Source of the DNA: an uncultured Verrucomicrobiae bacterium
Lineage (GTDB): Bacteria; Verrucomicrobiota; Verrucomicrobiia; Chthoniobacterales; UBA10450
DNA length: 64,000 bases
NCBI GenBank assembly: GCA_963834385.1
Contig: CAWIBO010000001.1
Span: 160,954 to 224,953 of the forward strand
Reading direction: 5' to 3'
Below, piece by piece: positions 34,057-52,399 of this stretch (position 1 is the first letter of the stretch; each line of letters begins with the position of its first letter). The notes beneath the pieces were generated by a model. That model was given only the letters and a program-made list of their open reading frames with translations, was not told the DNA's origin and made no database searches. The translations under genes and the position numbers were made by a program.

Positions 34057-35124
34057 ATGGCAATTGCGGGCGAAGCCAACCAACTCCATGCCGCCCTCGC
34101 GTCATGGTACCGGAAAGAGGGACGCGATCTCCCCTGGCGGCAGCGACGTGATCCTTACGCCATCATGGTCTCGGAAGTGATGCTGCAGCAGACCACGGTC
34201 GCCACGGTGGCGCCTCGTTTCGTTCGCTGGCTGCAGCGTTTTCCCGACCTGCCCGCCCTCGCCGCCGCGGAGGAGAATGATGTCCTGCACGAATGGGAGG
34301 GGCTCGGTTACTACGCGCGGGCCCGCCATCTTCACCGGGCGGCCCGGCAGATCGCGCAACGCCCAGGCGCGTCCTTTCCCCGCACGCTGGAGGAAATTCG
34401 GGCCCTCCCCGGCTGCGGCGATTACACCGCCCGGGCCATCGCCGTTTTCGCCTTTGGGGCCGGCCTGCCGCTGGTGGAGGCCAACATCGCCCGCGTTCTC
34501 AGCCGCCTCTTTTGCCTGGCCACGCCGATCGACACCGCGGCCGGCCGAAGAATTCTCTGGGCGCAGGCCGCCCGTCTGCTCCCGCAGAAGCGCGTGGCGG
34601 AGTGGAACTCGGCCCTGATGGACCTCGGCGCAACGGTCTGCCGGGCGCGCGCGCCGCGCTGTGCCGTCTGCCCGCTGCGCCCGTTCTGCCAGGCGCGTGA
34701 CCCGCTGCAATACCCGCGCAAAAAGGCGCGCGCCGCGCTGCAGCGGCGCCTCGAACGCCACGCCTTTGTGCAAAGAAAACAGTCTGTGCTGCTCCGCCAG
34801 TCAGGCAAGCGCTGGCGCGGCCTTTGGATTCTCCCCACTGCCGCCAGCGCCAGCGCCCGGCCGATCTACCGGGCCGAGTTTCCCTTCACGCATCATCGCA
34901 TCACTCTTTCGGTCTGCCGCGAGCAGCGCGCGGCCGGGACGGGCGAACGCTGGTTCAGCCGGAGCGCCCTCAAGGCCGCCCCGATGCCTTCACCGCATCG
35001 TCGCGCCCTGGAAGCGTTGCTGGCTAGGAAGCGGAAAACGCCGCCACCGCCGCGCTCGTCTCGGGCGCAGTCGGACGGGCCCGTTCCACCCGCGAATAGA
35101 GCGAGTAACGCGGGTCGAAAATGA
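34057..35124 (+). CDS. mutY: A/G-specific adenine glycosylase
   Basis: RDLPWR, SEVMLQQT, WEGLGYYARAR, LPGCG.YTA, C-x6-C-x2-C-x5-C, FTH. Confidence 0.93.
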   Translation: MAIAGEANQLHAALASWYRKEGRDLPWRQRRDPYAIMVSEVMLQQTTVATVAPRFVRWLQRFPDLPALAAAEENDVLHEWEGLGYYARARHLHRAARQIAQRPGASFPRTLEEIRALPGCGDYTARAIAVFAFGAGLPLVEANIARVLSRLFCLATPIDTAAGRRILWAQAARLLPQKRVAEWNSALMDLGATVCRARAPRCAVCPLRPFCQARDPLQYPRKKARAALQRRLERHAFVQRKQSVLLRQSGKRWRGLWILPTAASASARPIYRAEFPFTHHRITLSVCREQRAAGTGERWFSRSALKAAPMPSPHRRALEALLARKRKTPPPPRSSRAQSDGPVPPANRASNAGRK

Positions 35125-36016
35125 ACTGGAAGAGGAGCCGCGTCCAGGAGTCGTGGCTCTTCAGCGTGTCGTAAAATTCCGGCGCCATCGCGCGCAAACG
35201 CGGCAGGTTGTTCCACGGGATGGAAGGGATGTCGTGGTGCTCGTTGTGATAACCCATGTTCAGGGCCAGCCGGTTGATCGGTCCGTAGTAGCTGTAAGTC
35301 TCCTGATCGGGGTCGTTGGTGTAATGTTCCTGGATCCAGCGCGCCCCGACCGGATGGAGGCCAAGCGAGAAGAAGAAGGAAAAGACGAGGTAACAGAACC
35401 CGGCCCAGCCGAAGAAATAGATCACGGCCACGTCGTAGGCCAGCGCGCACAACGTGTTGATCAGGAACCAGCGGTTCCACATCGTGATGGCCTTGAGTCG
35501 CGGCGGACGGGTGAGCTGGAAGACGGGGAAAAACATCAGCCAGATCGCCTTGCGCCACCAGCTATGGCCGACCAGGCGCGCCTCCCAATGATTGGCCAGG
35601 TCGGCATCATGTTCATAATCGCCCTGGTGGGTGTGATGCTTGAGGTGATACACGCCAAAGCCGATCGCGCCCGGGATGAGGTTGGGCAGATCGGCCGTGA
35701 TGGCGACGAACTTGTTCAGGACCCGGCTGCGAAAAACAAGGTTATGGATGGCGTCGTGGATGACGACATACATGGCGTGATTGGCGAAGGCGCCGAGGCC
35801 GTAGGCGAGCAGGAGGGAAAGCCACCACCAGGACCAGCCAAGATGTCCCATGAGCGCGGCCAGCGACGTCTGCAGGGCCACGACCGTGATGGTGATGGCG
35901 GCGGTCCAGGGATTGCGACCGACCAGGGTGCGCACCTCGGGGTGCGCCTTGAAGATGGCCCGGGCCCGCTGCGGATGGGGATGCTCGTCCTCGGAGGCGA
36001 AAAAAGAGTCGGTCAT
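35024..36016 (-). CDS. Sphingolipid delta(4)-desaturase/C4-hydroxylase-like (DEGS/DES1 family)
   Basis: N-terminal EHPHPQRARAIFKAHPEV; His boxes HDAIH, HLKHH, HNEHH; GLHP; ETYSYYGP. Confidence 0.85.
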   Translation of the reverse strand: MTDSFFASEDEHPHPQRARAIFKAHPEVRTLVGRNPWTAAITITVVALQTSLAALMGHLGWSWWWLSLLLAYGLGAFANHAMYVVIHDAIHNLVFRSRVLNKFVAITADLPNLIPGAIGFGVYHLKHHTHQGDYEHDADLANHWEARLVGHSWWRKAIWLMFFPVFQLTRPPRLKAITMWNRWFLINTLCALAYDVAVIYFFGWAGFCYLVFSFFFSLGLHPVGARWIQEHYTNDPDQETYSYYGPINRLALNMGYHNEHHDIPSIPWNNLPRLRAMAPEFYDTLKSHDSWTRLLFQFIFDPRYSLYSRVERARPTAPETSAAVAAFSAS

Positions 36017-36174
36017 GGCAAAGGGGGAAAGCGGGGAACCATTTTGCACCGGGCGAGGCGGCGTGGCAACACCGCACCGCCCGCGGTTTCCCCTGTTTCG
36101 GGGGCGCGGGGCGAGGCTTGATTTTGGGCCCGAAATGCCCCAAGTTCGCCCTCCACGTCGGAGAACTAATACTC

Positions 36175-36202
36175 TTGCCGCCTATAAACAGGACGATAGA
36201 AT
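36175..36202 (+). promoter_or_regulatory. Sigma-70-like promoter for the spt-like operon
   Basis: TTGCCG-N16-TAGAAT upstream of ATG 36286. Confidence 0.5.
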
Positions 36203-36285: not shown

Positions 36286-37629
36286 ATGAAGAACAAGAAT
36301 GGAGCGACGAACGCTCACAACCCCGCCCCTCCGGTGACAAACGGCGACGATTGGGAACATTCCCGGGAAGCCGGGGACAAAGGGGGCCTGGATGGCAGCC
36401 GCAGCCTGGCCGATTTCGTGGTGGGCTCGAGCGACGATCCGGTCAAGCCGCCGCCCGGTTTCATGGAGTGGTGCAGCGCCGCCGCCTGGGAAGCTTCGCT
36501 CTATGAGCCCATCCTGTTGCAGTCGGCCGACCGCCGCACGACCCTTTCCTACGAAGGCGCTCCGAAGAGTGTCATCAATCTTTGTTCCTATAACTATCTC
36601 GGTCTGTCCACGCGGCCTGAGGTGATCAAGGCGGCGCAGGACGCGCTCGCGGAATACGGGGTTGGCGCCTGCGGCTCTCCCACTCTCTCCGGCCTGACCG
36701 ATCTTCATCGCGAACTGGAGCGAAAGGTGGCCAAGTTCCTTGGTCGCGAGGATGCGATGCTTTTCAACAGCGGCTTCGGCGGTGCGCTCGGGACGATTTC
36801 CGGCCTGCTCCGCAAGTCCGACGTGGCGGTGCTCGATAACCGGTCGCACATGAGCCTGCGCGACGGCGCTCTCCTGGCCCGTTCCCGCCTGGAGCGTTTT
36901 GAACACAATGACGCCGAGTCGCTCGACAAGGCGCTCAGCCGCCGCACCGGCAAACGCCGCCTCGTGGTGGTGGAAGGCATCTATTCCATGGACGGCGATT
37001 TTGCCGACCTCGACGCCCTGCTCGATGTCGCGGAGGCGCACGACGCCAGCGTGCTCATTGACGAGGCGCACTCGATGCTCGGGTGCGGCGAGAACGGGCG
37101 CGGCGCGGCCGAGCATTTCCACGCGGAAGACCGCATCACCCTGGTCTACGGAACTTTTTCCAAGGCGTTTGCCGCCCTGGGCGGTTTCGTGGCCGGCCCG
37201 GCCGAGACGCTCACCTATCTCCGCTTCTACGCGCATTCCTACGTTTATTCCTGCGCCCTTCCGCCGGCGGTCATCGCCGCCATTCTCAAGGCGCTCGAGA
37301 TCGCGGTGGCGGAGCCGGAACTGCGGCACCGGCTTTGGGAGAACGCGAATTATTTCCGGGAGAAACTGCAGGGCCTGGGGATCAACACCGGCGCCTCGAC
37401 CACCTACATCATGCCCCTGATCATCGGCGATCGGACCCGCATGTATCAGCTGGGCCACGCCCTGCGCAAACGCGGTCTCTTTGTCGCACCGGTCGATTAC
37501 CCGGCCGTGCCCCAGGATCAGATCTGTTTCCGCGCCTGCGTCACCTCCAGCCATACCCGGGCTGACCTCGACGAAGCGCTGAACATTCTCGAAGACACGC
37601 TTGTCCCGGCGCTTCTCCAGAACGCCTGA
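36286..37629 (+). CDS. spt: Alpha-oxoamine synthase, probable serine palmitoyltransferase
   Basis: SYNYLGL, D..SH.S, EGIYSMDGD, DEAHS, GTFSK (SPT-type lysine motif) and gene context. Confidence 0.75.
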   Translation: MKNKNGATNAHNPAPPVTNGDDWEHSREAGDKGGLDGSRSLADFVVGSSDDPVKPPPGFMEWCSAAAWEASLYEPILLQSADRRTTLSYEGAPKSVINLCSYNYLGLSTRPEVIKAAQDALAEYGVGACGSPTLSGLTDLHRELERKVAKFLGREDAMLFNSGFGGALGTISGLLRKSDVAVLDNRSHMSLRDGALLARSRLERFEHNDAESLDKALSRRTGKRRLVVVEGIYSMDGDFADLDALLDVAEAHDASVLIDEAHSMLGCGENGRGAAEHFHAEDRITLVYGTFSKAFAALGGFVAGPAETLTYLRFYAHSYVYSCALPPAVIAAILKALEIAVAEPELRHRLWENANYFREKLQGLGINTGASTTYIMPLIIGDRTRMYQLGHALRKRGLFVAPVDYPAVPQDQICFRACVTSSHTRADLDEALNILEDTLVPALLQNA

Positions 37630-37654
37630 GGGCGGGGCGGCGCGCGGTTCATCG

Positions 37655-38599
37655 ATGTCGGCTCCGTATTCACAGGCCGCTTTTGGTCCGGCGCCGGTGC
37701 AGGCGACCTACAAGGCGCGCGAAGTTGAAAGCCTGATCGATATTTATTTTTATCGGCCGGTTGGCTTTTACCTCGCGCTCTGGTCCTCCCGGATTCACCT
37801 CACCCCGAGCGGCGTCACCGCCATCGGCGCCCTCTTCGGCCTGGCCGCGGGGCATCTCTATTACTATAGCAGCCTCGGGCTGAACCTGGCCGGGATGCTT
37901 CTGCACATCATCGCCAATGCGCTCGACAACGCCGACGGCCAGCTCGCCCGTCTCACCGGCAAGGGGAGCCGGCTCGGCCGGATGAACGACAGCTTTGCCG
38001 ACCACGTCATTTTCATCGGGATCTACGCTCACCTCGGTTTTCGTTACCTGCACGAGGGGGGAACGCCTGCCATTGCCCTTCTCGCCCTCGCCGCCGGCGC
38101 CTGCCACGCCTTCCAGGGCGGCGTGGCCGACTTCGTGCGCAACGCCCACCTCTTCTTCACCTCCGCCGGGACCCGGGGCGACTTTGAGCCGGTGCCGGTC
38201 CTGGCCCGGCAGTTCGCCGGGCTGACCTGGCGCCGCGAACCATGGCACAAGCTTCTTCTGCTGCTGCACGTGCAATTCACCCGGCGGCAGGAAAGGATCA
38301 TGCCCGCGCTGGCGACCCTGCGCGACGCGATCATGGCCCGGCATGCGGCCGTGCCTGCCTGGTTCGCCGCCGCTTTTCGCCTCCGGAGCGCACCCCTCCT
38401 GAAGTGGGTCAACCTCATCATGACCAACCCGCGCATGCTCGTGCTTTTCGCCGTGCTCGCCCTCGGACGGCCCGCCTGGTTTTTCATCGCGCAGCTGACC
38501 ATCTTCAATCTCTTTACTGCCTATCTTCTCTGGCAGCTCGCCCGGGCCTGCCGGGACCTGCTCGTCCGGGTGGAGGCAGGGGAAACCGCGGCCCCGTGA
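37655..38599 (+). CDS. CDP-alcohol phosphatidyltransferase family protein 1
   Basis: TPSGVT, LDNADGQLAR...G...D..AD. Confidence 0.88.
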   Translation: MSAPYSQAAFGPAPVQATYKAREVESLIDIYFYRPVGFYLALWSSRIHLTPSGVTAIGALFGLAAGHLYYYSSLGLNLAGMLLHIIANALDNADGQLARLTGKGSRLGRMNDSFADHVIFIGIYAHLGFRYLHEGGTPAIALLALAAGACHAFQGGVADFVRNAHLFFTSAGTRGDFEPVPVLARQFAGLTWRREPWHKLLLLLHVQFTRRQERIMPALATLRDAIMARHAAVPAWFAAAFRLRSAPLLKWVNLIMTNPRMLVLFAVLALGRPAWFFIAQLTIFNLFTAYLLWQLARACRDLLVRVEAGETAAP

Positions 38600-39735
38600 C
38601 AGCGCCGCCGCCTGCGGTTACCCAGGTTGATTCCAGGGCGGAACTCGCCGCCTTCATCAGGTTCCCCTGGCAGGTTTATCGCCACGACCCCGCGTGGGTG
38701 CCGCCGCTGCTGCTCGAGCGCAGGCAGTTTTACGATCGTCGAAAGCACCCCTTCTACCGCCACGGCGAAGCGGCGCTTTTCCTGGCGCGCCGCGATGGCG
38801 AAATCGTCGGGCGGCTCATGGCTTCCGACGATCCGCACTACAACAAGGAGCACGGCTCGAACGTCGGCTGCTTCGGCTCCTTCGAGGCCATCAACGATCG
38901 GACCGTGGCGCACGCGCTTTTCGAGGCCGGCGCGGCCTGGCTGAAGAAGCGGGGCCGCAGCGGCGTGCTCGGGCCGATCGATTACTCGACGAATTATCTC
39001 TGCGGACTTCTCATCAACGGATTCGAGCATCCGCCGACCATCCTGACCGGGCACAATCCGTCCTACTACGTCGATCTTTTCGAGAGCTGGGGCTTTGCCA
39101 AGTCGATGGACCTGTACGCGTGGTGGTTTTCTGATGCGACCGAGCCGACGGAGCGGCTGAAGAAACTGGCCGAGGCCATGCGCAAACGGCACCGGGTCAC
39201 CATCCGCCAGGTGGACGTGAAAAATTTCGAGGAGGAAGCCGGCCGGATCCGCCGGGTTTACAACGCGGCCTGGGAGAAGAACTGGGGTTATGTTCCCTTC
39301 ACCGAGGCCGAGTTCGACTACATGGCAAAAGAGATGAAGCCGATCATCGTGCCCGAGGCCGCTCTCCTCGCCGAGGTGGAAGGCGAACCGATCGGTTTTC
39401 TTTTGGCTGTGCCCGACATCAACGTCGCCCTGAAGAAGATCAACGGCCGGCTCTTCCGGTTCGGCCTGCCCCTTGGCCTGGCCCGACTGCTCTATCACAA
39501 GCCGCGCATCCGCACCGGGCGCCTCGTCGCCCTCGGCGTGGTCGAAAAATACCGGCGCCACGGCATCGCCGAGATGATGGTCTTGCGCGTGATGGATTAC
39601 GCGGTGAACAAGCGGCGCTTCAGCGGTGAACTGAGTCTTACCCTTGAAAGCAACGTCATGGTCAACCGTTTCATCGAGGCTGTCGGTGCGGAGAAGTATA
39701 AGACCTACCGCATCTACGAACGCGCGCTTTCCTGA
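38596..39735 (+). CDS. GNAT-fold acyltransferase, bacterial ceramide synthase (bCerS)-like
   Basis: FI.FPW.VY..DP.WVPPL, FG.FE, GLL..GF..PP, HNP.YY, YN.AW..NWG.VP, LGV...YR..G, YK.YR.Y; coupled to the upstream gene. Confidence 0.75.
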   Translation: MTAPPPAVTQVDSRAELAAFIRFPWQVYRHDPAWVPPLLLERRQFYDRRKHPFYRHGEAALFLARRDGEIVGRLMASDDPHYNKEHGSNVGCFGSFEAINDRTVAHALFEAGAAWLKKRGRSGVLGPIDYSTNYLCGLLINGFEHPPTILTGHNPSYYVDLFESWGFAKSMDLYAWWFSDATEPTERLKKLAEAMRKRHRVTIRQVDVKNFEEEAGRIRRVYNAAWEKNWGYVPFTEAEFDYMAKEMKPIIVPEAALLAEVEGEPIGFLLAVPDINVALKKINGRLFRFGLPLGLARLLYHKPRIRTGRLVALGVVEKYRRHGIAEMMVLRVMDYAVNKRRFSGELSLTLESNVMVNRFIEAVGAEKYKTYRIYERALS

Positions 39736-40841
39736 TGCCGGAGCCTGCATGCCACGTCCGGCTTCACCTGGATGAGGCGGCTGCCTGGCGGGTGGCCGGC
39801 CTTCTCCAGCACGAAAGGATCCTTTTCTGCCTGCAGGAAGTCGCCGCGGCCCGCGGTGAAACCTGGCGCGTCTCTTTCTCCCCTTCCGCGCCGCCGCGGA
39901 ACACGCCCCGCCCAAACGCTTTCCCCGACCTGCTCCTCGAGGAAACGGATCAGCCGGGCTCGCCCGACTTTTTCCTGAGCACCCGCTGGTTCGTCACTCC
40001 CGAGGTGATTCATCGCCTCGCGCAACTGCCGGCGGCCCCGGCCGGATTGCCCACGACCGACGAAGACCTGCGGCGGGCGGGCGCAGTTCCTCTGCAGGAT
40101 CGACAGGATGTTCCCGCGCTGGAGCGATGGTTTTTTGCCGACAGCGGCAAGACGCAGGACGGCCTCGTCTCGCGTTTCCTTAACCGGCCGGTCTCGCGTT
40201 TCGTCAGCCGCTGGCTGGTCCGGACGCCGCTCACGCCGAATGTCTGGACGCTCCTGCTTCTGCCGCTCCCGCTGGCGGGCGCATTTTTCCTGGCGCAGGG
40301 AAATGCCGCTGGCTTCGTCGCCGGGGCGCTCTTCTATCATCTCTACAGCATCCTGGACGGCTGCGACGGCGAGATCGCGCGGGCCAAATTCCTTCGCAGC
40401 GATTTCGGCCGGCGTCTCGACACGGCCTGCGATTTCGGCGCCACTCTTCTCATGGTGCTCGCCCTGGGCATCGGGTGCGGACGCGAGGCCGGGACAGGAT
40501 GGTGGGCCGCTCTCTATCCCTGGGAAGGCTTGGCCGCTGCTCTCCTGCTTTCGCTCAATGAAATGCTGCTGCACGCCCGGCCCGCCGAAGAATCAGGCGA
40601 ATCGCCGGTGTCGGGAGTTCTCTACGAACGTCACCGCAACCTCGTCGCCGGCTCGGGGCTGCTCAGGCTGGGCGACGGCTTCAGCTGGTGGCTGATCCAA
40701 CTGACCAAGCGCGACGTGGTTCTTTTTGCGTTTGTCCTCCTCGCCCTGGCCGGCCTGCCGGAGTGGATGCTCCATCTCCACTTCGGATTCGGGGTTGTCA
40801 GCTCAGCGCTGGCTGGCCGCGCGCTGCGACGCACCCGTTAG
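39735..40841 (+). CDS. CDP-alcohol phosphatidyltransferase family protein 2 (DIPPS-like)
   Basis: DGLVSRFLNRPVS, TPN, LDGCDGEIAR...G..LD..CD, RD. Confidence 0.88.
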   Translation: MPEPACHVRLHLDEAAAWRVAGLLQHERILFCLQEVAAARGETWRVSFSPSAPPRNTPRPNAFPDLLLEETDQPGSPDFFLSTRWFVTPEVIHRLAQLPAAPAGLPTTDEDLRRAGAVPLQDRQDVPALERWFFADSGKTQDGLVSRFLNRPVSRFVSRWLVRTPLTPNVWTLLLLPLPLAGAFFLAQGNAAGFVAGALFYHLYSILDGCDGEIARAKFLRSDFGRRLDTACDFGATLLMVLALGIGCGREAGTGWWAALYPWEGLAAALLLSLNEMLLHARPAEESGESPVSGVLYERHRNLVAGSGLLRLGDGFSWWLIQLTKRDVVLFAFVLLALAGLPEWMLHLHFGFGVVSSALAGRALRRTR

Positions 40842-41546
40842 ACGTTCCTCGGCGTGGCGGAGCATCTCCGGCGTGTCGATATCCTGCCACCAGCCGTCGC
40901 CGATATCGATGGCGCGCACTTTCCCGGCCTCGGCCATGCCGCGGACGCCGTCCGCCAGGCTGCAATCGCCGTCCTGCCGGACCGCCTCCAGAAAATCGAA
41001 GAGCTCCGGATCGCAAATGAAGAGGCCGGTGTCGACAGCGTCGAAGTCAGCGAGCTGTTTTCCGATTCTCCGCACCAGGCCGTCCTCCGTCCGGACTTTC
41101 ATGGCATCGTCCATGTCGAAAATGGAATCGAGTTTTCGGTCGACGGCGAGGTTGACGTAACCCGCCTCGGACTCGGCTTTGAGCCGGAGCAGGCTGGCCT
41201 CGTCGAAGAGATGATCGCCCATAAGGAGGAAAAAGGCCTTTGGCACATGGGCCCGGGCGGCGAGCACGGAAACGCCGTTTTGCTTCTGCCATTCGTGGTT
41301 CGTGATGATGTTCAGGCTAAGCCCGGCCGGCACCAGAGTTGTCAGGCCCTGGACAAGGAGGTCGGCGGCCGAGCCGACCACGGCGTGCAGCCTGCGGACC
41401 CCGGCGTTTTGCAGGGAGGAGAAGGCGCGGGAGATGACCGGTTGCCCACCGATGCGGACGAGCGGCTTGGGAATTCCTCCCCCGGCTCCCTGCAAGCGCG
41501 AACCCGCCCCCGCCATGAGAATCACGGCGTCTTCAACCTGCAACAT
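40803..41546 (-). CDS. NTP transferase, inositol-1-phosphate cytidylyltransferase (IPCT)-like
   Basis: AVILMAGAGSRL, PKPLV, NGVS, MGDHLF, VDTGLF, WQDIDT. Confidence 0.82.
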   Translation of the reverse strand: MLQVEDAVILMAGAGSRLQGAGGGIPKPLVRIGGQPVISRAFSSLQNAGVRRLHAVVGSAADLLVQGLTTLVPAGLSLNIITNHEWQKQNGVSVLAARAHVPKAFFLLMGDHLFDEASLLRLKAESEAGYVNLAVDRKLDSIFDMDDAMKVRTEDGLVRRIGKQLADFDAVDTGLFICDPELFDFLEAVRQDGDCSLADGVRGMAEAGKVRAIDIGDGWWQDIDTPEMLRHAEERLTGASQRAASQR

Positions 41547-41582: not shown

Positions 41583-42380
41583 TCAAATCCGATAGAATTT
41601 CCGGATGAGGCGCAGGCTCGCGCGCTGCGGGAGCAGGCGGACCGCCAGGGGCGCCATGATCGCCTGGAAAAATCCGCCCACGGTCAGGCGGGGCGCCGGC
41701 TCGCCGGATTCAATCACCCGCATGATCGCCTCGGCCACGATCTCCGGGCCGGGGGCGCGCTGGAGATTATTGTCGACCGAGCGCCAGACATTCTTCAGGC
41801 GGTCACTGGCGGCATCGCGCCGGCCGGCGTTCTTCACCGCCGCATTGAAGTTGGTGCGGATATCGCCGGGTTGCAGATCGACGATGCGGACTCCGCTTTC
41901 CGCCAGCTCGAGTTGAAGCGTCATGGTGAAAGCCGCCAGGGCGCTCTTCGCCGAGTTGTAGGCCGCCATGTACGGGATCGGCAGCCGAACGGCGAGGGAG
42001 GTCACGTTGATGATCAAGCCGCCGGCCCGCGGAAGCATGTCGGCCAGCGCGAGCTGACAGAGGGTTGCCGGCGATAGATAGAGCGTCTGGGTCAACTCCC
42101 GCAGCAGGTCGGGGTTCATGGTCTCGGTCGGACCAAAGTGCCCGCTCCCGGCATTGTTGATCACGACGTCGAAGTGTTCCGCTTCACCCAGGCCCGCGGC
42201 AAAGGCCTGGCGGACCGAAGCCGGGTCGGCCAGATCCATTGTGAGGGGATGAAAGCCGGGCCGGGCCGACAGACGCGAAGCCTCCCGCGAAGTGCCCCAG
42301 ACTTCGTGCCCGCGCGCCAAAAAAAGGTTGGCCATGGCCAGGCCGATGCCGGAGCTCGCGCCGGTGAGGAAAATTTTCAT
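41583..42380 (-). CDS. Short-chain dehydrogenase/reductase
   Basis: TGASSGIG, NNAG, YNSAK. Confidence 0.9.
   Translation of the reverse strand: MKIFLTGASSGIGLAMANLFLARGHEVWGTSREASRLSARPGFHPLTMDLADPASVRQAFAAGLGEAEHFDVVINNAGSGHFGPTETMNPDLLRELTQTLYLSPATLCQLALADMLPRAGGLIINVTSLAVRLPIPYMAAYNSAKSALAAFTMTLQLELAESGVRIVDLQPGDIRTNFNAAVKNAGRRDAASDRLKNVWRSVDNNLQRAPGPEIVAEAIMRVIESGEPAPRLTVGGFFQAIMAPLAVRLLPQRASLRLIRKFYRI

Positions 42381-43914: not shown

Positions 43915-43918
<4 letters not shown>
42398..43918 (-). CDS. MOP-superfamily flippase (Wzx/MurJ-like)
   Basis: ARLLGP..LG.F, RID..ML, VGIYG, LIP.FGVTGAA; 12-14 TM helices. Confidence 0.85.
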
Positions 43919-44619
<701 letters not shown>

Positions 44620-44682
44620 GGACGGGGCGCCGGCCGAAGCGCGCTGGACGCACTGGCGACGTTCTGGGAGAAGTGCGGGAGC

Positions 44683-45954
44683 ATGTTGGTCGAGTTACGC
44701 GTGATTATTCTGGCCGAAACACCGGCCGCGCTTTGTCGCCTCTGCGGCGTCACGATGTTAGAACGGTTGCTGCGCAATCTCCAGCGCCTTGGGGTGCGGG
44801 AGGCGATTATTCTCCCCGGGCCCGGGATTGATCCCGGCCACCTCGCGCCAGACTGGACCCGACCTGACCTGAAGGTGCAGGCGCAGCCGCGGCGCGCCAC
44901 CGGTCCCATGACCATCGACGAACTGATGCGCCTTGTGCCGGAAGGCCGGGCACTCCTGCTCAGGGCCGACGTTTATTGCGATCCGCGTCTTCTCCAGGCC
45001 CTGCTCGAGGCCACCGAAACCACGTTGCTGGTTGATTCCGCACCACCGGAGCACTGGCTAAGCCTGCTCAAGGTCGCCGACAAACAGGCCGAACTTTTTC
45101 TCTGTGGCCCGGCGCTGGTCACCCGACGGTGGCTGACGCAGAAGGATCACACGGCCTTTCTGCCGGAGACGCTCAGGCACGACCTGGCCGGGGGCGAGGT
45201 GGCCATTCTCGATGCGGCGGCCCAGCCTGCCTACGTGGTCTCGATGCGGCGCGAAATTCGGCCTTTCTGGTTTCCCGCGCCTTCGCTGCAACACGCCGGC
45301 CTGGCTGAGGGCCTGCTCCTCGATGCCGCGCAAAACGGGACGCTCGATGCCCCGGCCATTCTGCATGGCCCGATTGAGACGGCGCTGGTCTCGCGCCTCT
45401 CATGGACTCCCATTACGCCCAATCAGGTCACCTTCGTGACCATGCTCCTGGGCCTCGTGGTCACCGCCCTCTTCGTCACCGGACAACTCTGGCCGGGCGC
45501 GATCCTTGCCCTCGTCATCGGCATTCTCGACGGCGTTGATGGCAAACTGGCCCGGGTAAAAGTGGAAACCACCGCGCTGGGCCAGTGGGAACACGAGGTC
45601 GATTACGCCATCGAAACCTCCTGGTGGGCCGCGCTCGCCCTGCATTTCTCCGGGCAGCTCCCCTGGGCTTTCGCGTTTTTCGCGCTGCTTTTCCTGTCCG
45701 ATCTGGTGGATCGCCTGGCCAAGCGCCATGTGAAAAAGAAACTCGGACGCAACCTGGACGATGTAACCCGGTTCGACCGCCTCGTCCGTTTCATCGGAGC
45801 CCGGCGCAACATCTCCGTCTGGATTCTCACCGGCGGCCTGCTGCTCGGCGCCGCGCCAGCCAGTTACGCGCTGGTCTGCCTCTGGACCACCGCGACCGCG
45901 ACGGTTCACCTCTTCCGCGCGTTCCAGATTCGCCGCCCGGCCGGGCCCGCTTGA
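44683..45954 (+). CDS. CDP-alcohol phosphatidyltransferase family protein 3 with degenerate NTP-transferase-like N-terminus
   Basis: LCGVTMLERLLR.L..LG at the N-terminus; ITPNQVT; LDGVDGKLAR. Start reassigned to 44683. Confidence 0.85.
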   Translation: MLVELRVIILAETPAALCRLCGVTMLERLLRNLQRLGVREAIILPGPGIDPGHLAPDWTRPDLKVQAQPRRATGPMTIDELMRLVPEGRALLLRADVYCDPRLLQALLEATETTLLVDSAPPEHWLSLLKVADKQAELFLCGPALVTRRWLTQKDHTAFLPETLRHDLAGGEVAILDAAAQPAYVVSMRREIRPFWFPAPSLQHAGLAEGLLLDAAQNGTLDAPAILHGPIETALVSRLSWTPITPNQVTFVTMLLGLVVTALFVTGQLWPGAILALVIGILDGVDGKLARVKVETTALGQWEHEVDYAIETSWWAALALHFSGQLPWAFAFFALLFLSDLVDRLAKRHVKKKLGRNLDDVTRFDRLVRFIGARRNISVWILTGGLLLGAAPASYALVCLWTTATATVHLFRAFQIRRPAGPA

Positions 45955-45958
45955 TCGC

Positions 45959-47020
45959 TCAGGCCGCCACCGGCTGCGCGGGCTCGGAGGGCGCCGGATC
46001 GGCGTGGCGTGTCCGGATCAATTCAGGAACCCGTTTGGCCCGGGCCACGATTTCGCGACCGAGGACACGACCGGGATTTTCCACCATGAGCGAGGTGCTG
46101 ACCGCGCAATAAACGCCGCATCCCGCCTGGCAATCCTTCTTGCGATAATTCAGATACAGATCAGCCAGGGTCACATCCATGATGTTTTTGTCGGTGTGCA
46201 CCATGCTGCAGACCCAGAATTTTCCCTGCGCGGAGACGAAGAAGAGCTTGTAGCCGGCCATGCATGTCCATTCCGTCTTCTCGCCCCGGAGCAGCGACCG
46301 CTGATATTTGAGGATGGCTTCGCTGGTGTGAATGCGTTCGCCGCGCTTTTTCCGCTCGATCATTGAATCGATGAACGCCTCCAGTTCCTCTTTCGAGCCG
46401 CGCTCGACCCGGAACCGGCTCGTGGGATCGGCGTGGACCAGGCGCACCTCGGTCGGGATGCCGCGGGAGAGGCCGGTTTCGAGGACGGCACGCGATTCCG
46501 GCAGCGTGTCCTGGCAGATCACGCCGGTGATATGCAGGCTGATCTTCGAGTCCTTGAAGTAATCCAGCTTCGGCAAAATGGTCTTGAACGATTTGCGCGT
46601 GATCGGGCTCGGGGTCATCCGGTCGACGCTGATCTGCATCACCTGCAGGCCGGCTTCCTCGAGATCCTTGAGCAGTTTCCGGGTGAGGAGAAAACCGTTG
46701 GTGGTGAGACTGGTGGCAAAGCCGAGTTCGCGGCAATAGCGGACCAGCTCGACGATCTCGGGGTGCAGGAGCGGTTCACCGCCGACGAGCGCGATGCGCA
46801 TGGTGCCGAGATCGCGGATCTTTTTCACCCAGATTTTGAGGTCGGCCAGGGACGGGTGCGGCCGGCTGTTGTTGTACTCGGTGCAATAGGCGCAGTTCAG
46901 GTTGCACCGGTCGGTCACATAAAGACTGCACTGGAGCGGTTTCCGGTCGAGGAGCCGTTTCCCGGACTCCAGGACGTTATAGCCGGAGAACTCGCGGCCG
47001 ATCTTATCAAGCAATTTCAT
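45959..47020 (-). CDS. Radical SAM protein with C-terminal Cys-rich (twitch/SPASM-like) region
   Basis: CNLNCAYC, GGEP, TTNG, ISVD; CMAG...C...CQAGCGVYC. Confidence 0.9.
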   Translation of the reverse strand: MKLLDKIGREFSGYNVLESGKRLLDRKPLQCSLYVTDRCNLNCAYCTEYNNSRPHPSLADLKIWVKKIRDLGTMRIALVGGEPLLHPEIVELVRYCRELGFATSLTTNGFLLTRKLLKDLEEAGLQVMQISVDRMTPSPITRKSFKTILPKLDYFKDSKISLHITGVICQDTLPESRAVLETGLSRGIPTEVRLVHADPTSRFRVERGSKEELEAFIDSMIERKKRGERIHTSEAILKYQRSLLRGEKTEWTCMAGYKLFFVSAQGKFWVCSMVHTDKNIMDVTLADLYLNYRKKDCQAGCGVYCAVSTSLMVENPGRVLGREIVARAKRVPELIRTRHADPAPSEPAQPVAA

Positions 47021-47153
47021 GAGGGGGGCCGCCCGCGGGACGGGTTGCCATAGTAGCGGATTTGCCCCGGCTGTCACATGGAAATGCGACCGGTATCCCC
47101 ACCCCCGAGGTCACCATCCGCCTTTCATCCCGGGGCGCCCCGGTGCGTTCTGG

Positions 47154-47253: not shown

Positions 47254-48492
47254 TTACGCGCTGGAGCCGCGCAGGGTCACGACGGGGGCCAGCTGCGCGG
47301 CGCGCCGGGCCGGGACGTAGGAGGCAATCAGGACAGCGATCAGGGCCAGGACCGTGGCCCAGAAATAATGGCGCCAGTCCCAGGTAACGAGAAAGTGGTC
47401 GGCATAGAGGACACCCCGGATGCGGATCGGAATGCGCGAGACGCCCCAGGTCATGACCGCGCCCAACAGGCAACCGAGGATGGAGCCGGCCGCGGCGATA
47501 AAGGCGCCCTGCCAGAGGAAAATGGCGGCGATATCGTTCTGCCGGTATCCCATTGAGCGCAGGATCGCGATCTCCTTCACCTTGCTCAGGACCGACATGG
47601 TCAAAATGTTAAAAATGCCGAACCCGGCCAAAAGAATGATGAGTGAGACCGTGATGGCGGCGGACATGCGCAGGGTGAGAAAAAGCTGGAGATTGGCTTC
47701 CTCCCGGTCCTGCCAGCTCTGGGTCTCGTGCTGGAAAAGCCGTTCGAAGTGCGCCGCCAGGGCGGGGGCGCGCTGCGGATCGCGCAGCTTGTAGACGATA
47801 AGCGAGGAGCCGAACGGCTTCTTCAAGAGCGTCTGGGCGACGCGCACATGACAGTAAACGCGGGAAGCGTCGATGTTGCCGACCCCGCTGCGGGCGGTCG
47901 CCGCAACGACAAAACGGCGGTACTCGCCCCCGCGGGAGAGCAACTGGATGGCGTCGCCCGAGCCCACCCCGAGGATGCCGGCGAGACGGGTGCCAATGAT
48001 CACGGAAGCGGGGTTGTTCCGGAAATCATCGAAGCTGCCGCTAACGATCTGGTCGGCCAGGTTGGTCGCCTGCACATGGAGAACCGGGGTGACGCCGTAA
48101 AGATCAATGGTGGCGCTTTCAAACCCGGCCCGGCCGGAAAGAGTGCCGCGCAAGACCGGCGAACAGGCCACCACGTTGGAGAACCGGCGGCTGATGCGCA
48201 TGATTTCAGCGGCGTTGTTGATCCCTTCAAAAACACGACGCCGCGCCGCTGCGGCGACCGAGCCTTTCGCGGGCACGGCGAGGTTGTCGTAGCGCGGCTG
48301 GAAGCGCGAACGCAGCACCAGCGCGCCGTTGCTCCCCAGGGTCGAGTCGATGAAATCCTGCGCAAAACCGGCCGTCTGGGCCTGCGTAGTGATGAAAATG
48401 GCCACGCCAAAGACAACCCCGGCAAGGCTGAGGAGAAAGGCGCGCTTGCGGTGAAAAAGAAACCGCAGGGCGATGTAAAGCGGCGGCGTCAC
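47254..48492 (-). CDS. ABC permease, LolC/E / MacB-FtsX family
   Basis: GVVFGVA, large periplasmic domain, KEIAILRSMG, PARRAA.L.PV..LR. Confidence 0.9.
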   Translation of the reverse strand: MTPPLYIALRFLFHRKRAFLLSLAGVVFGVAIFITTQAQTAGFAQDFIDSTLGSNGALVLRSRFQPRYDNLAVPAKGSVAAAARRRVFEGINNAAEIMRISRRFSNVVACSPVLRGTLSGRAGFESATIDLYGVTPVLHVQATNLADQIVSGSFDDFRNNPASVIIGTRLAGILGVGSGDAIQLLSRGGEYRRFVVAATARSGVGNIDASRVYCHVRVAQTLLKKPFGSSLIVYKLRDPQRAPALAAHFERLFQHETQSWQDREEANLQLFLTLRMSAAITVSLIILLAGFGIFNILTMSVLSKVKEIAILRSMGYRQNDIAAIFLWQGAFIAAAGSILGCLLGAVMTWGVSRIPIRIRGVLYADHFLVTWDWRHYFWATVLALIAVLIASYVPARRAAQLAPVVTLRGSSA

Positions 48493-49640
48493 TGCATCGC
48501 GTCGTCGGAAGCGCGGCGGGTGCGCACCGGCTGGCCGGCGTGAAGCTTGTCCTGGTCCTCCACCGCGACCAGCTCACCCTCCTTCAAACCCTTGCGCACC
48601 TCACTTTTCTCGAGGGTCCGGTAGCCGATCTCCACGGAGCGAAACTCGACCAGGCCGTTGTGGATCACCACCACGCGATCAACCAGGAGCGCCCGGCTCG
48701 GCACCAGGAGAGCCTTCTCGCGCGTTCCGGTGATAATGTTCATCTCGCCCGTCATGCCCGCCATGAGATTGTCCGGCGGATCCTGCAGTTCGAGCACGAT
48801 GGAATAGCGCTGCGTTTCCGGGTCGGCCGCCGGCATGATGGAGGTGACCACGGCGGTCAGCGTGCGGCTGCGATAGGCGTAGAGCTGGACGTTGGCCTTC
48901 ATGCCGCTTTTTACCTCGCCGACGTCCTCCTCGTTCACCTCGCCGGCGATATAGTTCTTGCGCGAGGAAACAGTCAGCAACGGGTTCCCGCTCGAGACCA
49001 GTTCGCCGTCGAGGACCCGCAGATCGGAAAGGATGCCGTCGATGGGCGCGCGAATCTCCGAGCTGGACATCTGGTCCTCGAGCTTTTTGACCGCCTCGCG
49101 CAGTTCGCCCAGGTTGCGTTCGCGCTCGATCTCCTCCGTCCTGACCGCGGCTCCGAGGCGGGCGGCCTCGCTTTTGGCGCGTTCCAGCTCGACCACCGGG
49201 ACGTTGCTGAGCGCCGCCAGTTTCTCGAGTCGCTGCACGTTGGCCTCGGCCACCTTGAGCGGCTCGGCCGAGGCGGTCGGGATCTGGGAGCGCTCCAGGG
49301 CGGCGCCCAAATCGGCCTGCGCCTGTTTCAACTGCCGGGCCGTGGCCTCATCCGCAATGGTGGCCAGCAGATCGCCCTTGGCCACGGTCTTGCCGATGGC
49401 CCCGCGCCCGATCGAAAGCGCGTCGCTCAGGCTGATATACCCCGAGTTTTGCGCGCGGACCTGAATGACAAAGGCAGGCTCGATCCGCACCGTGCCGTAG
49501 ACCGCGGAGATGGCGGTGCCGCGGCGCACCGTCTGCACTTCCACGACCGGAAGGAAAAAGAAATAGTAGGTTAGCGCGACAAGCAGAAAGACCGCCGGCA
49601 GCAACCACCAGATGAACTTTCGGGGAGCAAGGAGATTCAA
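48489..49640 (-). CDS. Periplasmic adaptor (membrane fusion protein)
   Basis: N-terminal TM, coiled hairpin, IRAPIDG, V.EED...VK.G, L..GMT, GL.EG. Confidence 0.9.
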   Translation of the reverse strand: MNLLAPRKFIWWLLPAVFLLVALTYYFFFLPVVEVQTVRRGTAISAVYGTVRIEPAFVIQVRAQNSGYISLSDALSIGRGAIGKTVAKGDLLATIADEATARQLKQAQADLGAALERSQIPTASAEPLKVAEANVQRLEKLAALSNVPVVELERAKSEAARLGAAVRTEEIERERNLGELREAVKKLEDQMSSSEIRAPIDGILSDLRVLDGELVSSGNPLLTVSSRKNYIAGEVNEEDVGEVKSGMKANVQLYAYRSRTLTAVVTSIMPAADPETQRYSIVLELQDPPDNLMAGMTGEMNIITGTREKALLVPSRALLVDRVVVIHNGLVEFRSVEIGYRTLEKSEVRKGLKEGELVAVEDQDKLHAGQPVRTRRASDDAMQ

Positions 49641-49652
49641 GACAGACTCGAA

Positions 49653-50981
49653 CTAATCCAGCTTCCCCGTCGTGTCTTTTGAAAATTCGAGATAGCGGCC
49701 GGTGGCGAGGTCCCATTCCGCAAGAGTCACCTGGTGCTGGTAGGCGGCGGAGAGAAGGCCGCTCCGGGCATCGAGCAGGTTGCTCTCCGCCCCGCGAAAA
49801 TCGAGCACGGACGCGAGACCTTCCGCAAGGGAACGCCGGATCATCTCGGCGTTTTCGCCGGCGTCCTCGGCCGCGGCGGAAAAAGCGCGATGCCGGGCGG
49901 CGATGGCCCGCAGCTCCGCCTCAAGCCGGGCCAGTTCATTCGGCACCGTGGCTTCCAGCCGCGCCAGTTGTGCTTCATTCGCGCGGGCCGTTTCCTTCCT
50001 GGCGTGGGCGGCGCCACCCACCTCCCCGTTGTCGATGACCCGCCAGGTGTAGGTCACGCCGGTCCGCACCTCGGAGGAAATGATATCGTCACTGCGCTGC
50101 GGGGTGCCTTCGTTGCCGCGCCGGGTCTCCGAGACCGGGATATAGTCGCCGGCCACGACCGCCGTCAGCGCCGGATAGTAACCGGCCAGTGCGATCCGAT
50201 ATTCTTCGCGGGCGCTTTGAACCAGGCGACGGGCCAGCTCGAGATCGGGGCGCCGCTTCAAGGTCGCTTCCGTTGCCCGGGCGAGATCGTGTCTGGTCGT
50301 GGTCATGGCAAGGCTGCCGGAGGGATCGCGAAGCTGTGTCCCGGCATCGAGCCCGGCGCCCATGGCGGCATGGAGTTCAACGAGGGCGCCGCGATAGGAG
50401 CGCAGGGCCGCCTCGACGCGCGGATCGAGTTCGCGCGCGAGGAGCGTGGCGCCGATCAGGAGATTACGCTGCCCCACCCCGGCCTCGTAAAGCGCCTCCT
50501 GCGATTTGATGTTGGCGTCGAGAGCTTCCCGCTGTGAACGACGGAGCGATTCCAGCTCGCGGCTATACAGCGCGGTGAGGAAAGCGATCCGGGCGCGATG
50601 GAGCTGTTCCGACACCGCAACGTTGAACTGCTGCTGGGCCACCAGCAGGGCGACATCTCCCCGCCGACGCGAGGGCGGAATGGCGGCATTGAAAAGCGGC
50701 TGGGTGAAAACGCCGCGGGCAAAAGCGAACGGCTGCGTCGAAGCTTCGCCGGAGCGTTTTCCACCCTGCAAACCAAGGACCACGCCGAGCCGCGCCTGCG
50801 GCCAGGTCACGGCATGCAGGGTCAGACGATAACCGGCCGCCTGCTCGAGCTGCGTTTTCGCCCCAAGGATGGTGGGATTGTGCTCCAAAGTCTCCTGCAA
50901 CGCCTCGTCGAGAGTAAGCGCTCCCGCCGACCCCATGGAGACGAGGAGCGCAAAAATGGAACCGTGCAGGAACCTCCTCAT
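49653..50981 (-). CDS. TolC-family outer membrane protein 1
   Basis: LTLDEAL...L.HNP, RPDL, YYP.L, G..S.LD; signal peptide. Confidence 0.88.
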   Translation of the reverse strand: MRRFLHGSIFALLVSMGSAGALTLDEALQETLEHNPTILGAKTQLEQAAGYRLTLHAVTWPQARLGVVLGLQGGKRSGEASTQPFAFARGVFTQPLFNAAIPPSRRRGDVALLVAQQQFNVAVSEQLHRARIAFLTALYSRELESLRRSQREALDANIKSQEALYEAGVGQRNLLIGATLLARELDPRVEAALRSYRGALVELHAAMGAGLDAGTQLRDPSGSLAMTTTRHDLARATEATLKRRPDLELARRLVQSAREEYRIALAGYYPALTAVVAGDYIPVSETRRGNEGTPQRSDDIISSEVRTGVTYTWRVIDNGEVGGAAHARKETARANEAQLARLEATVPNELARLEAELRAIAARHRAFSAAAEDAGENAEMIRRSLAEGLASVLDFRGAESNLLDARSGLLSAAYQHQVTLAEWDLATGRYLEFSKDTTGKLD

Positions 50982-52399
50982 CGCCGGCCTTTCAGGCGCG
51001 CCGGCGGCCGCGCCAGATGCAGCAGGCGAAGGTCGGCGTCCTCCGCGACACGGTTTTCAACAGCGCGCACTTTCTTGTCGAACTCGGACGAAGGGGAACG
51101 GCCCCGCGCGCGGTCGAGGCGGGCCAGCGCTGCGTTATGCAGGTAAATCGCACTGAGACGGGTGGCCTTGGTCCGGGTGATGTCGGAAGCCGCCTGCAAA
51201 ACTTCGAGCTGCGTTCCCAGCCCGGCAGCGACGTTGGCCCGGGCCAGCTCGAGGGACTCGGCGGCCGTCTCAACGTTTCGGGTCTCGGCCGCGAGCACGC
51301 GATCCGCCTGCTGGAGATCGAGAATGGCGTTTCGCACTTCCATGGCCACGAGCAGCCGGGCTGAAGCCAGCGCCTGCGCGGCGGCCGTCTGCCGGGCGCG
51401 GGTGGCCTGCATCCGTCCCTTGGTGGCGAACCCATCGAAAATTTTCCAGCTCGCGTTCACGCCCACGACGTAACCGTGATTCAGTTCCTCGCCCACGGCC
51501 GGATCGCGTTCGCTGTAAACCTCGTAACCGCCAAACATATCCACCTGCGGACGCAAACCGGCGCGGTCGACCTGCAACTGGTGTTCCTCGATCGCCACAT
51601 CCGCCTGGCGCGCCAGAATCTCGGGCCGGTTGGTCTCCGCCTCGGCCAGGGAAGCGTTCAAATCCGGCTTCGCCGGGCGATACTCGAGCTCTCCCGCGAC
51701 CCGGAAGCTTGGGCCTTCCTGGTATTCCTCCGGGTCCATCCCGAAAAGGTCAGCCAGTTTGAGATGCGAGAGTTCCACCTGTTTGCGCGCGTCGATCAAC
51801 TCCGGCTCCTCGCTCGCCACCGCCACCTCCGCGCGCCGGACATTCAGTTCGCCCACGGTGCCGGCACTTAGGCGTTCCTGCTGCGTCCTGAGTTCCTGCT
51901 GGAGGACGGAAAGCGACTGCTGGCGCACCTGCACCCGGGCGCGGTTAAGGAGCAGCTCGGCAAAGGCGATGCGCACATCCATGATCACGCGGCTGGTCAC
52001 GGCCTCGAGTTCCAGGCGCTGTTTGGCGCGGTTCAAACGGGCGATGGCCATTTCGTGCGTGGTTTTCCCGCCCGTGTAGAGATTCTGCACCACGCGCAGG
52101 TTGGCGTTGTAATCATCCTCACGCAGGCGCGAGTCCTCCTGCTGCTCGCGTTTCCGGTAAAGGCCGCTGGAAAGCAATGAAGGCAGATAACCGGCCCTGG
52201 CCTCGGTCACGCCTCCCTGCGCCGCGCTCAAGCGGGCGCGCGCAATGGCGATATCGCGATTCTTTTTCAGCGCGAGCGCGATCCCCTGGTCGACATCGTA
52301 AACGGGGCCATTCCCGGCATCCGCCCCGGTGGGCAGGGTCAGGAGCAGCGCCAGGAGGATACCGGCAAAGATGCGAGAAGCGTTATGGCCGGCGAGCAT
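50978..52399 (-). CDS. TolC-family outer membrane protein 2
   Basis: AL..N.DI, YLP.L, NRPEI, W.IFDG, GLGTQLEVLQA. Start reassigned to 52399. Confidence 0.88.
   Translation of the reverse strand: MLAGHNASRIFAGILLALLLTLPTGADAGNGPVYDVDQGIALALKKNRDIAIARARLSAAQGGVTEARAGYLPSLLSSGLYRKREQQEDSRLREDDYNANLRVVQNLYTGGKTTHEMAIARLNRAKQRLELEAVTSRVIMDVRIAFAELLLNRARVQVRQQSLSVLQQELRTQQERLSAGTVGELNVRRAEVAVASEEPELIDARKQVELSHLKLADLFGMDPEEYQEGPSFRVAGELEYRPAKPDLNASLAEAETNRPEILARQADVAIEEHQLQVDRAGLRPQVDMFGGYEVYSERDPAVGEELNHGYVVGVNASWKIFDGFATKGRMQATRARQTAAAQALASARLLVAMEVRNAILDLQQADRVLAAETRNVETAAESLELARANVAAGLGTQLEVLQAASDITRTKATRLSAIYLHNAALARLDRARGRSPSSEFDKKVRAVENRVAEDADLRLLHLARPPARLKGRR

Follow-up and report, generated by a model that had tools for sequence, protein, structure and literature searches.

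A candidate inositol-phosphate ceramide gene cluster with a putative non-canonical long-chain-base synthase in a family of Chthoniobacterales

We analysed a window of 64,000 nucleotides from an uncultured Verrucomicrobiae bacterium (assembly GCA_963834385.1, contig CAWIBO010000001.1, positions 160,954 to 224,953), which belongs to contig C1 of a 2.9-Mb genome that is 89.6% complete. Between mutY (ending at 35124) and addA (52528-55686), the window carries 15 contiguous open reading frames (ORFs); the ORFs and their domain matches confirmed the gene families named in a first-pass annotation. We propose that the synthesis genes among them make an inositol-phosphate ceramide resembling those of fungi or plants, and put the probability of this reading at roughly 0.6. 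A ceramide-type backbone is very probable, and an inositol-type head group on that backbone is likely. Judged by sequence, the cluster is a combination of known enzyme types that is new, with a putatively non-canonical long-chain-base synthase. The genes for synthesis and tailoring are as follows (window positions).

35024..36049, minus strand: DEGS-like sphingolipid delta-4 desaturase or C4-hydroxylase, accessory (PF08557, PF00487)
36286..37629, plus strand: alpha-oxoamine synthase (AOS), likely a long-chain-base synthase, of a divergent clade resembling serine palmitoyltransferase (SPT), with a longer N-terminus
37601..38599, plus strand: CDP-alcohol phosphotransferase 1 (cdp1), likely the first head-group transfer (PF01066)
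38596..39735, plus strand: GNAT acyltransferase, bacterial ceramide synthase (bCerS/YghO) family
39735..40841, plus strand: CDP-alcohol phosphotransferase 2 (cdp2), IPCT/DIPPS-like, with a degenerate N-terminal extension (PF01066)
40803..41546, minus strand: IPCT-like cytidylyltransferase, predicted to make CDP-inositol
41583..42380, minus strand: short-chain dehydrogenase/reductase (SDR), likely a 3-keto long-chain-base reductase (KdsR type)
44683..45954, plus strand: CDP-alcohol phosphotransferase 3 (cdp3), with a degenerate NTP-transferase domain (PF01066, weak PF12804)
45959..47077, minus strand: radical SAM enzyme, accessory, for head-group or chain tailoring (PF04055)

Each gene was sought in the same 36 genomes of the family (f1) and the same 24 genomes from the rest of the order, and the family tallies take in two unpublished genomes (G002 and G014). 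The GNAT was found in 34 family genomes (one of them with a distant type at 29% identity) and, at ~30% identity, in 12 of the others. The AOS type (E < 1e-190), the IPCT-like cytidylyltransferase and inositol-phosphate synthase occurred in 32, 31 and 33 family genomes, respectively, and in none of the others; the SDR was present in 33 and 3, the desaturase in 18 and none, and the permease of the adjoining transport operon in 32 and 3. Two family genomes, G007 (94% complete) and G013 (84%), gave no match for any of the seven searched genes. Since related genomes are not independent, these counts show a family trait and not repeated co-evolution. Among 301 genomes sampled across the phylum, the GNAT was found in 29. 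The closest AOS homologues (71 to 76% identity) came from records titled Verrucomicrobiae, Spartobacteria, Chthoniobacterales and Candidatus Udaeobacter, and the GNAT is present, at 60%, in the genome from which the Udaeobacter record comes; we infer that f1 is the Chthoniobacterales family holding Udaeobacter.

For 25 of the 34 GNAT carriers in the family, synteny was surveyed in 20 kb around this gene. A CDP-alcohol transferase gene was present in all 25, the SDR in 23 and the cytidylyltransferase in 22; the AOS gene lay inside 19 and just past the edge of the remaining 6, so that GNAT and AOS genes are linked in every locus. The permease (18) and flippase (14), the radical SAM enzyme (12), a fatty-acid hydroxylase (12) and the desaturase (10) were less constant, and some glycosyltransferase was found in 19. 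The grouping of these genes exceeds chance, and the cluster is one layout among those in which variable tailoring genes accompany a fixed core. The desaturase and the radical SAM enzyme, which occur in 18 of 36 genomes and 12 of 25 loci, respectively, are accessory. The expectation that the gene set is co-conserved was thus borne out for the synthesis core.

The ceramide-type backbone predicted earlier gains support from the presence of a bCerS-family GNAT beside an SPT-like AOS, a KdsR-like SDR and a DEGS-like desaturase. The GNAT aligned over its full length with E. coli YghO (37% identity, E of 1e-65), whose gene neighbours are spt, acp and those for an epimerase, an acyl-AMP ligase and LptFG. 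It was 32 to 42% identical over ~370 residues to GNATs of spt loci in E. coli, Sphingomonas, Roseomonas, Rubrobacter and a Bacteroidales genome, and nested among the GNATs of such loci in a tree. The AOS proteins of the E. coli and Sphingomonas loci scored above the Spt cut-offs, and in a Bacteroidales genome an above-cut-off Spt gene is directly followed by a GNAT gene (38% to the cluster GNAT) and then by an epimerase gene. This locus context, together with the Caulobacter studies cited below, suggests that the GNAT belongs to the bCerS family. A comparison of the GNAT with the Protein Data Bank (PDB) gave no informative match, and a bCerS profile search of the genomes G007, G038, G041, G055 and G066, run without a positive control, found nothing. 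A plasmid of Rubrobacter radiotolerans (L144:7701-11068) carries an Spt-clade AOS gene, a GNAT gene (42% to the cluster GNAT), a reductase gene and then a gene of the lipoteichoic acid synthase family; this set may be a ceramide-type operon in an actinobacterium. Spt-clade AOS genes were also seen in families f6 and f3 (L177, at G041:C58:9956-17329, and L182, in G038), with no bCerS match.

In the PDB, the AOS matched SPT of S. multivorum best by sequence (280 bits versus 241 for Kbl), and the same enzyme was the best fold match (Foldseek, the sole source of the fold ranking; E of 7e-44, model pLDDT 90). Residues G80/S81, H138, S185, D210 and H213 of the S. multivorum enzyme correspond to G130/S131, H188, S234, D259 and H262 of the AOS, and T241, S243, K244 and S273 to T290, S292, K293 and S322. 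The fold is therefore accompanied by intact pyridoxal-phosphate-binding and catalytic residues, as these are given in PMC10196870. The AOS also has YNY, as does Sphingomonas Spt, and the GTFSK noted in the first-pass annotation is present at residues 289-293. The AOS trees were quick searches with SH-aLRT as the only support measure, built without eukaryotic LCB1/2, HemA and SgaB; the later tree held 39 rows, after 26 redundant or long-branch rows of 63 had been dropped and 2 added. The family AOS grouped with proteins of Myxococcales and Eremiobacterota (SH-aLRT 99), and weakly (SH-aLRT 83 to 91) with AOS domains fused to polyketide synthase (PKS) or FAAL domains and with Bacteroidota AOS proteins in beta-branching cassettes. 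Placement with BioF or Kbl, which had been named in advance as the outcome that would speak against a sphingolipid role, was not seen: the AOS was separate from both in the trees and scored below their cut-offs, and Kbl and BioF proper are encoded elsewhere in the genome, scoring 663.7 bits (cut-off 493) and 435 bits (cut-off 426.45), respectively. A role as cysteate acyltransferase (CFAT) was also rejected, as a cysteine replaces the trans-subunit lysine (Lys280 of COCFAT). Rows L163-L166 formed a clade apart from the AOS and, by that lysine, appear CFAT-like. In two loci of Eremiobacterota/Xenobia, a member of the AOS clade itself has a bCerS-like GNAT nearby.

The nearest AOS homologues outside the family (L074-L076, L102 and L114, with the AOS at ~10000-11200) lie in a cassette of genes for acyl carrier protein (ACP), AOS, acyltransferase, FabA, ketosynthase, FabG, HMG-CoA synthase and two enoyl hydratases. 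This cassette occurred in records of Myxococcales, Eremiobacterota/Xenobia and Bacteroidota, and two copies adjoin a bCerS-like GNAT gene, glycosyltransferase genes and an FtsX permease gene. Its product may be methyl-branched long-chain bases.

A number of observations weigh against an inositol-phosphate ceramide made by this AOS. The fold scores for SPT and Kbl were nearly equal (TM 0.81-0.82 versus 0.80-0.81). At SPT positions, Arg82 and Asn117 are replaced by Pro and Ala, and the motif in the AOS and its family is GTFSKA and not GTFSKS, the form stated to be characteristic of SPT (PMC10196870); moreover, substrate specificity is reported to be unreadable from first-shell residues (PMC13692747). 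The AOS scored below all NCBIfam Spt cut-offs (330/640, 308/500 and 254/670 bits), and the models ranked as bioF (341), the BioF/Kbl subfamily (337) and Bacteroidota Spt (330), all below cut-off. It fell outside the 13-row Spt clade of the 39-row tree (SH-aLRT 98). The Myxococcales genome with the nearest AOS gave no bCerS match. The SDR, although the best match to KdsR (NF049977) in its genome (146 versus 111 bits), did not reach the cut-off of 400 and scored higher on an uncharacterised family; in family f6 it sits behind FabZ/ketosynthase genes. Matches of the CDP-alcohol transferases were weak, with an acceptor that is unreadable from sequence. The 13-row Spt clade includes spt genes of other Chthoniobacterales families, and forcing the AOS and Spt into one clade cost 15.8 log-likelihood units with a p-AU of 0.06, which neither rejects nor establishes the grouping. 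By context the AOS would act like SPT, yet it was no Spt member in the tests run. Of the earlier assignment as Spt, the fold, the catalytic residues and the context stood, and membership of the canonical clade, the cut-offs and GTFSKS did not. Because it lies outside that clade and under every Spt cut-off, its use of serine is presumptive.

The SDR carries TGASSGIG at residue 6 and YNSAK; in the PDB it matched generic SDRs only. No CerR gene was found in the locus, and the genome, at 89.6% completeness, has only generic epimerases at 22 to 32% identity. Seven loci of other families have an spt-GNAT-epimerase arrangement, and their genomes all lack the SDR, indicating that, within the order, one reductase type substitutes for the other. 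The desaturase matched PF08557 and PF00487 above cut-off and has three His boxes (HDAIH, HLKHH and HNEHH), by which it is predicted to be of the DEGS type, acting as either a delta-4 desaturase or a hydroxylase. Relatives pair it with a PF04116 fatty-acid hydroxylase, an orthologue of which (63%) lies on contig C5 of the source genome. A delta-4-unsaturated or hydroxylated product, as first suggested, is consistent with this enzyme and its PF08557 domain, but as an accessory feature of half of the family genomes. In the radical SAM enzyme, five C-terminal Cys were invariant in 20 of 20 rows, which fell into three subtypes, and they may bind an auxiliary cluster. Its single-sequence model was poor (pLDDT 45), and its Atlas matches were generic radical SAM clusters only.

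The inositol-type head group is supported by an IPCT-like enzyme and an inositol-phosphate synthase in the same genomes. The best PDB matches of the cytidylyltransferase were A. fulgidus IPCT structures (4MND/2XME, 110-113 bits; the next 83 and others 42 or less). With IPCT as its nearest solved relative and inositol-phosphate synthase as a co-occurring gene, it is predicted to be IPCT-like. The gene for inositol-3-phosphate synthase lies at C1:116884, ~80 kb from the cluster; since this gene and that of the fatty-acid hydroxylase are encoded elsewhere in the genome, the cluster is not complete, as it had been called. The catalytic motif DxxDGxxAR..GxxxDxxxD is complete in cdp1 and cdp2. The best PDB matches of cdp1, in which an N-terminal NTP-transferase domain is absent, were phosphatidylinositol-phosphate synthases, although weak, and cdp2 scored 60.9 bits on NF041135 (bifunctional IPCT/DIPP synthase), far under the cut-off. 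The best PDB match of cdp3 was AF2299. All 13 of the family members compared share its variant motif G-x-x-E-x-x-x-D, in which one residue is deleted and Glu stands in place of the third Asp, indicating a conserved variant and not decay. Housekeeping PgsA or PssA functions for the cdp genes are unlikely, as the genome has three better PF01066 matches outside the cluster, which could serve ordinary phospholipid synthesis.

An extra module was observed in L024:1-4879 and six other family loci (7 of 25), inserted between or beside the AOS and GNAT genes and standing beside cdp1 or replacing it. It encodes a related transferase, a HAD hydrolase, an NTP transferase, a protein of 270 aa without assigned function (Atlas neighbours unnamed, a few with RimK), a class III aminotransferase and a Gfo/Idh dehydrogenase. 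This content suggests an amino-polyol head group, possibly an amino-inositol or amino-sugar. Clusters of relatives also contain genes for a GT-C (PMT_2) glycosyltransferase (L021:9694-11205), a PIG-V-like protein (L026:483-1709) and a YdjC deacetylase (L070:11842-12702), which suggest sugar decoration like that of glycosylphosphatidylinositol or glycosylinositol phosphoceramides. In the source genome (G000), a homologue of the GT-C gene of those clusters (C2:1050385-1051787) is split over three frames by frameshifts or an assembly error.

The first step of the proposed pathway would be the condensation of serine with a long acyl-ACP or acyl-CoA by the AOS, giving a 3-keto base. Lacking a signal peptide, the SDR would reduce this base in the cytoplasm, probably ahead of acylation, which is the order in Bacteroides and eukaryotes. 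The GNAT, by analogy with its family, would N-acylate the base with a second chain. Optional steps may be delta-4 desaturation or C4-hydroxylation by the DEGS-like enzyme and the action of the fatty-acid hydroxylase from contig C5. Inositol-3-phosphate synthase would supply inositol phosphate for conversion into CDP-inositol by the IPCT-like enzyme, and cdp1 would move phospho-inositol from CDP-inositol onto the C1 hydroxyl of ceramide. Further phospho-polyol units may be added by cdp2 and cdp3, as in the Caulobacter lipid CPG2, and the flippase would carry the lipid across the inner membrane.

We weighed this pathway against the possibility that the locus holds two, in which the AOS, SDR and GNAT make a plain or glycosylated ceramide, and the cytidylyltransferase and cdp proteins make a separate inositol product, either an inositol glycerolipid (Rhodothermus BEPIS type) or the solute di-myo-inositol phosphate. 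The best matches of cdp2 and cdp3, the bifunctional IPCT/DIPP synthase model and AF2299, fit such a division, as do the glycosyltransferases of the family loci and the one CDP-inositol lipid route described as worked out, which uses dialkylether glycerol and not ceramide (reported second-hand in PMC4587543). However, cdp1 is lodged between the AOS and GNAT genes with overlapping stop and start codons, and none of the 25 surveyed family loci lacks a CDP-alcohol transferase gene. Moreover, cdp3 is closest to the transferase of a Roseomonas sphingolipid locus (36% identity), and CDP-alcohol chemistry on a ceramide lipid has a precedent in Caulobacter (PMC11324152). We therefore regard two separate pathways as quite unlikely. 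It is less likely still that the AOS takes an amino acid other than serine, or a special branched acyl chain, and so yields a ceramide-like aminolipid, for example with a 1-deoxy base. Its separate clade with the weak PKS/FAAL-fused and beta-branching sisters, its outside homologues (55 to 56%) in cassettes with HMG-CoA synthase and enoyl hydratases, and its active-site differences from SPT speak for such a substrate, but the adjacent phosphotransferases would find no C1 hydroxyl on a 1-deoxy base, the AOS does not have the CFAT lysine, and the PKS-associated AOS SgaB is serine-specific and paired with a KDSR-like SDR (PMC12134224). An inositol-phosphate ceramide is thus the reading that we prefer.

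The remaining genes of the cluster encode a flippase and an ABC-adaptor-TolC operon, which had been proposed to deliver the lipid to the outer membrane.

42398..43984, minus strand: Wzx/MOP-type flippase (PF01943; ~10 hydrophobic segments)
43915..44619, minus strand: LolD/MacB-type ATPase of the tripartite ABC operon (PF00005)
47254..48492, minus strand: LolC/E-MacB-type permease (FtsX/MacB type)
48489..49640, minus strand: periplasmic adaptor, or membrane fusion protein (TIGR01730, above cut-off)
49653..50981, minus strand: TolC-family outer membrane protein 1 (PF02321)
50978..52399, minus strand: TolC-family outer membrane protein 2 (PF02321, TIGR01844)

The ATPase scored 241.7 bits on TIGR02211, below the cut-off of 307.75. 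The permease scored 160 bits on TIGR02212 versus 315 for a gene on contig C2, and a housekeeping LolC/E role was rejected on account of this better match and because the operon includes an adaptor gene and two TolC genes; searches of the permease against cluster representatives gave no named matches. Several arrangements favour the operon as a dedicated route for the same lipid. In family loci the permease mostly lies within the fetched stretch, and in 22 of 32 permease-bearing relatives the inositol-phosphate synthase gene closes the far side of the operon, just past the second tolC and ~6.5 kb or less from the permease. In the source genome, the cdp3 and radical SAM genes are inserted between the ATPase and permease genes. 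G007 lacks both modules, and in G041, of another family, a tolC-tolC-adaptor-permease-ATPase operon adjoins an Spt-clade AOS gene and several glycosyltransferase genes, with an SDR orthologue ~9 kb off. The source genome has only two LptF/G matches, and therefore no second pair as in Caulobacter. However, conservation of the operon extends over the class, for the most part without these lipid genes, which makes the export claim weak. A permease orthologue occurred in 41 of the 301 genomes of the phylum sample, and of 38 carriers outside the family 32 had no GNAT match and 6 had one (family f19: permease 25/26, GNAT 6/26; family f23: 5/5 and 0/5). The tolC-adaptor-permease-ATPase order was intact in all 20 fetched loci of these 38, and no AOS, GNAT, CDP-alcohol transferase or cytidylyltransferase gene was found within ~9 kb of the operon in them; common neighbours were alternative complex III genes and sugar epimerase genes. 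Families with the canonical spt-GNAT-epimerase set lack the permease, and in G012 the lipid genes and the pump operon are ~620 kb apart. In addition, TolC channels usually discharge their cargo to the outside. The operon is more likely an older, pre-existing neighbour than a dedicated exporter, and we consider dedicated lipid export by this pump unlikely. Alternative complex III genes come after the tolC-adaptor-permease-ATPase operon in many Verrucomicrobiia (L232, L234, L236-L238 and L242-L245). For transport, Caulobacter relies on LptF2/G2, and the route taken by other producers is described as open.

Among the closest known systems is the Caulobacter crescentus locus CC_1168-CC_1152, with genes for Spt, bCerS, CerR, ceramide (di)phosphoglycerate synthesis, a flippase and LptF2/G2 (PMC11324152, PMC11087976, bioRxiv 10.64898/2026.04.12.717747). 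Both loci bring together an AOS and a bCerS-family GNAT, a nucleotidyltransferase and CDP-alcohol transferase, a flippase and transport genes. Unlike the Caulobacter locus, the cluster has an AOS from another clade, an SDR instead of CerR, a DEGS-like desaturase, an IPCT-like enzyme, three CDP-alcohol transferases and an adjoining tripartite ABC-TolC operon, and the queries used found no homologues of ceramide kinase, ACP, acyl synthetase or LptF2/G2 in it. A putative inositol-lipid cluster of Bacteroides vulgatus and Prevotella (MIPS, NTP transferase, CDP-alcohol transferase and HAD hydrolase; bioRxiv 10.1101/2021.04.26.441525) likewise combines inositol-phosphate synthase, NTP transferase and CDP-alcohol transferase in a proposed CDP-inositol route, and its HAD hydrolase has counterparts in the 7 family loci with the extra module and none in the window. 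That route, however, is unconfirmed, was proposed via phosphatidylinositol and stands apart from backbone genes. IPCT-like cytidylyltransferases and CDP-alcohol transferases with an N-terminal NTP-transferase-like domain are also known from Archaeoglobus IPCT/DIPP synthase (4MND, 2XME), AF2299 (4O6M) and Rhodothermus IPCT/BEPIS; these systems, in contrast, yield a solute or ether-glycerol lipids and lack genes for a ceramide backbone. The SDR-type reduction of a 3-keto base has a parallel in Bacteroides thetaiotaomicron KDSR BT_0972 (PMC9278070), and SgaB of Pseudomonas MYb115 SgaABC is a non-canonical, PKS-linked AOS that uses serine (PMC12134224); unlike these systems, the cluster has an SDR far under the KdsR cut-off, no PKS and a bCerS-family GNAT. 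The transport operon resembles MacAB-TolC and LolCDE-type (FtsX-domain) systems in its ATPase, FtsX/MacB permease, adaptor and TolC, but its ATPase is split from the permease, it has two TolC genes, and it is conserved across Verrucomicrobiia. We found no published description of the cluster or of sphingolipids in this family in the literature within reach, which excluded most subscription papers, and to that extent the gene combination is undescribed. The further claim that no such pathway had been described in this lineage was too strong, as Spt-like genes have been reported in 22 metagenome-assembled genomes of Verrucomicrobiota (PMC11334938).

The intergenic gaps in the cluster range from -70 to +236 bases, and strands alternate, so the cluster is not one operon. 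Its GC content (~0.62-0.66) equals that of the flanks, giving no sign of a recent island. The GNAT start at 38596 (379 aa) agrees with the public gene call, and a 497-aa ORF (38242-39735) was rejected as an upstream over-extension, as was a 672-aa ORF (43936-45954) for cdp3. The cdp3 gene most plausibly starts at 44683 because the longer upstream ORF runs antisense to lolD. The public call of the desaturase (330 aa) starts further in, and the gene of the second TolC protein has its ATG at 52399 and encodes an N-terminus resembling a signal peptide. Other Chthoniobacterales families (L041-L052) carry a canonical-type spt-GNAT(-epimerase) operon, so that two distinct sphingolipid systems exist in one order. 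In several relatives (loci L021, L025, L039, L061, L062, L067 and L068), waaA (Kdo transferase) lies directly upstream of the AOS gene, as does a diacylglycerol-kinase-family gene in some of them; both genes are on contig C2 in the source genome. A valyl-tRNA synthetase gene in L041 (12279-15668) has an internal Y1 transposase-like match (PF01797) and resembles in this respect alaS and leuS of the source genome, which have in-frame insertions.

If the proposed pathway is correct, an AOS outside the Spt clade would start ceramide synthesis, and such genes would be missed by surveys based on that clade. The cluster also offers concrete enzymes for the direct transfer from CDP-inositol to ceramide, which was proposed for Bacteroidetes and is unconfirmed, and for what bacterial DEGS-like proteins do. 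Candidatus Udaeobacter is highly abundant in soils. In a soil lipidome study, ceramides, phytoceramides and 2-hydroxy ceramides increased in drought; the authors read them largely as fungal and called for unknown bacterial ceramide producers (PMC9969633). The family is a candidate source of these soil ceramides. More tentatively, and at less than even odds, the whole family may make eukaryote-style (glycosyl-)inositol-phosphoceramides with an independently recruited synthase from outside the Spt clade, a reductase acting in the eukaryotic order, a DEGS-like enzyme and direct CDP-inositol-to-ceramide transfer; relatives would add GT-C/PIG-V-like sugars or amino-inositol, a TolC-type pump would perhaps be co-opted, and part of the soil ceramides, phytoceramides and 2-hydroxy ceramides read as fungal would be bacterial.

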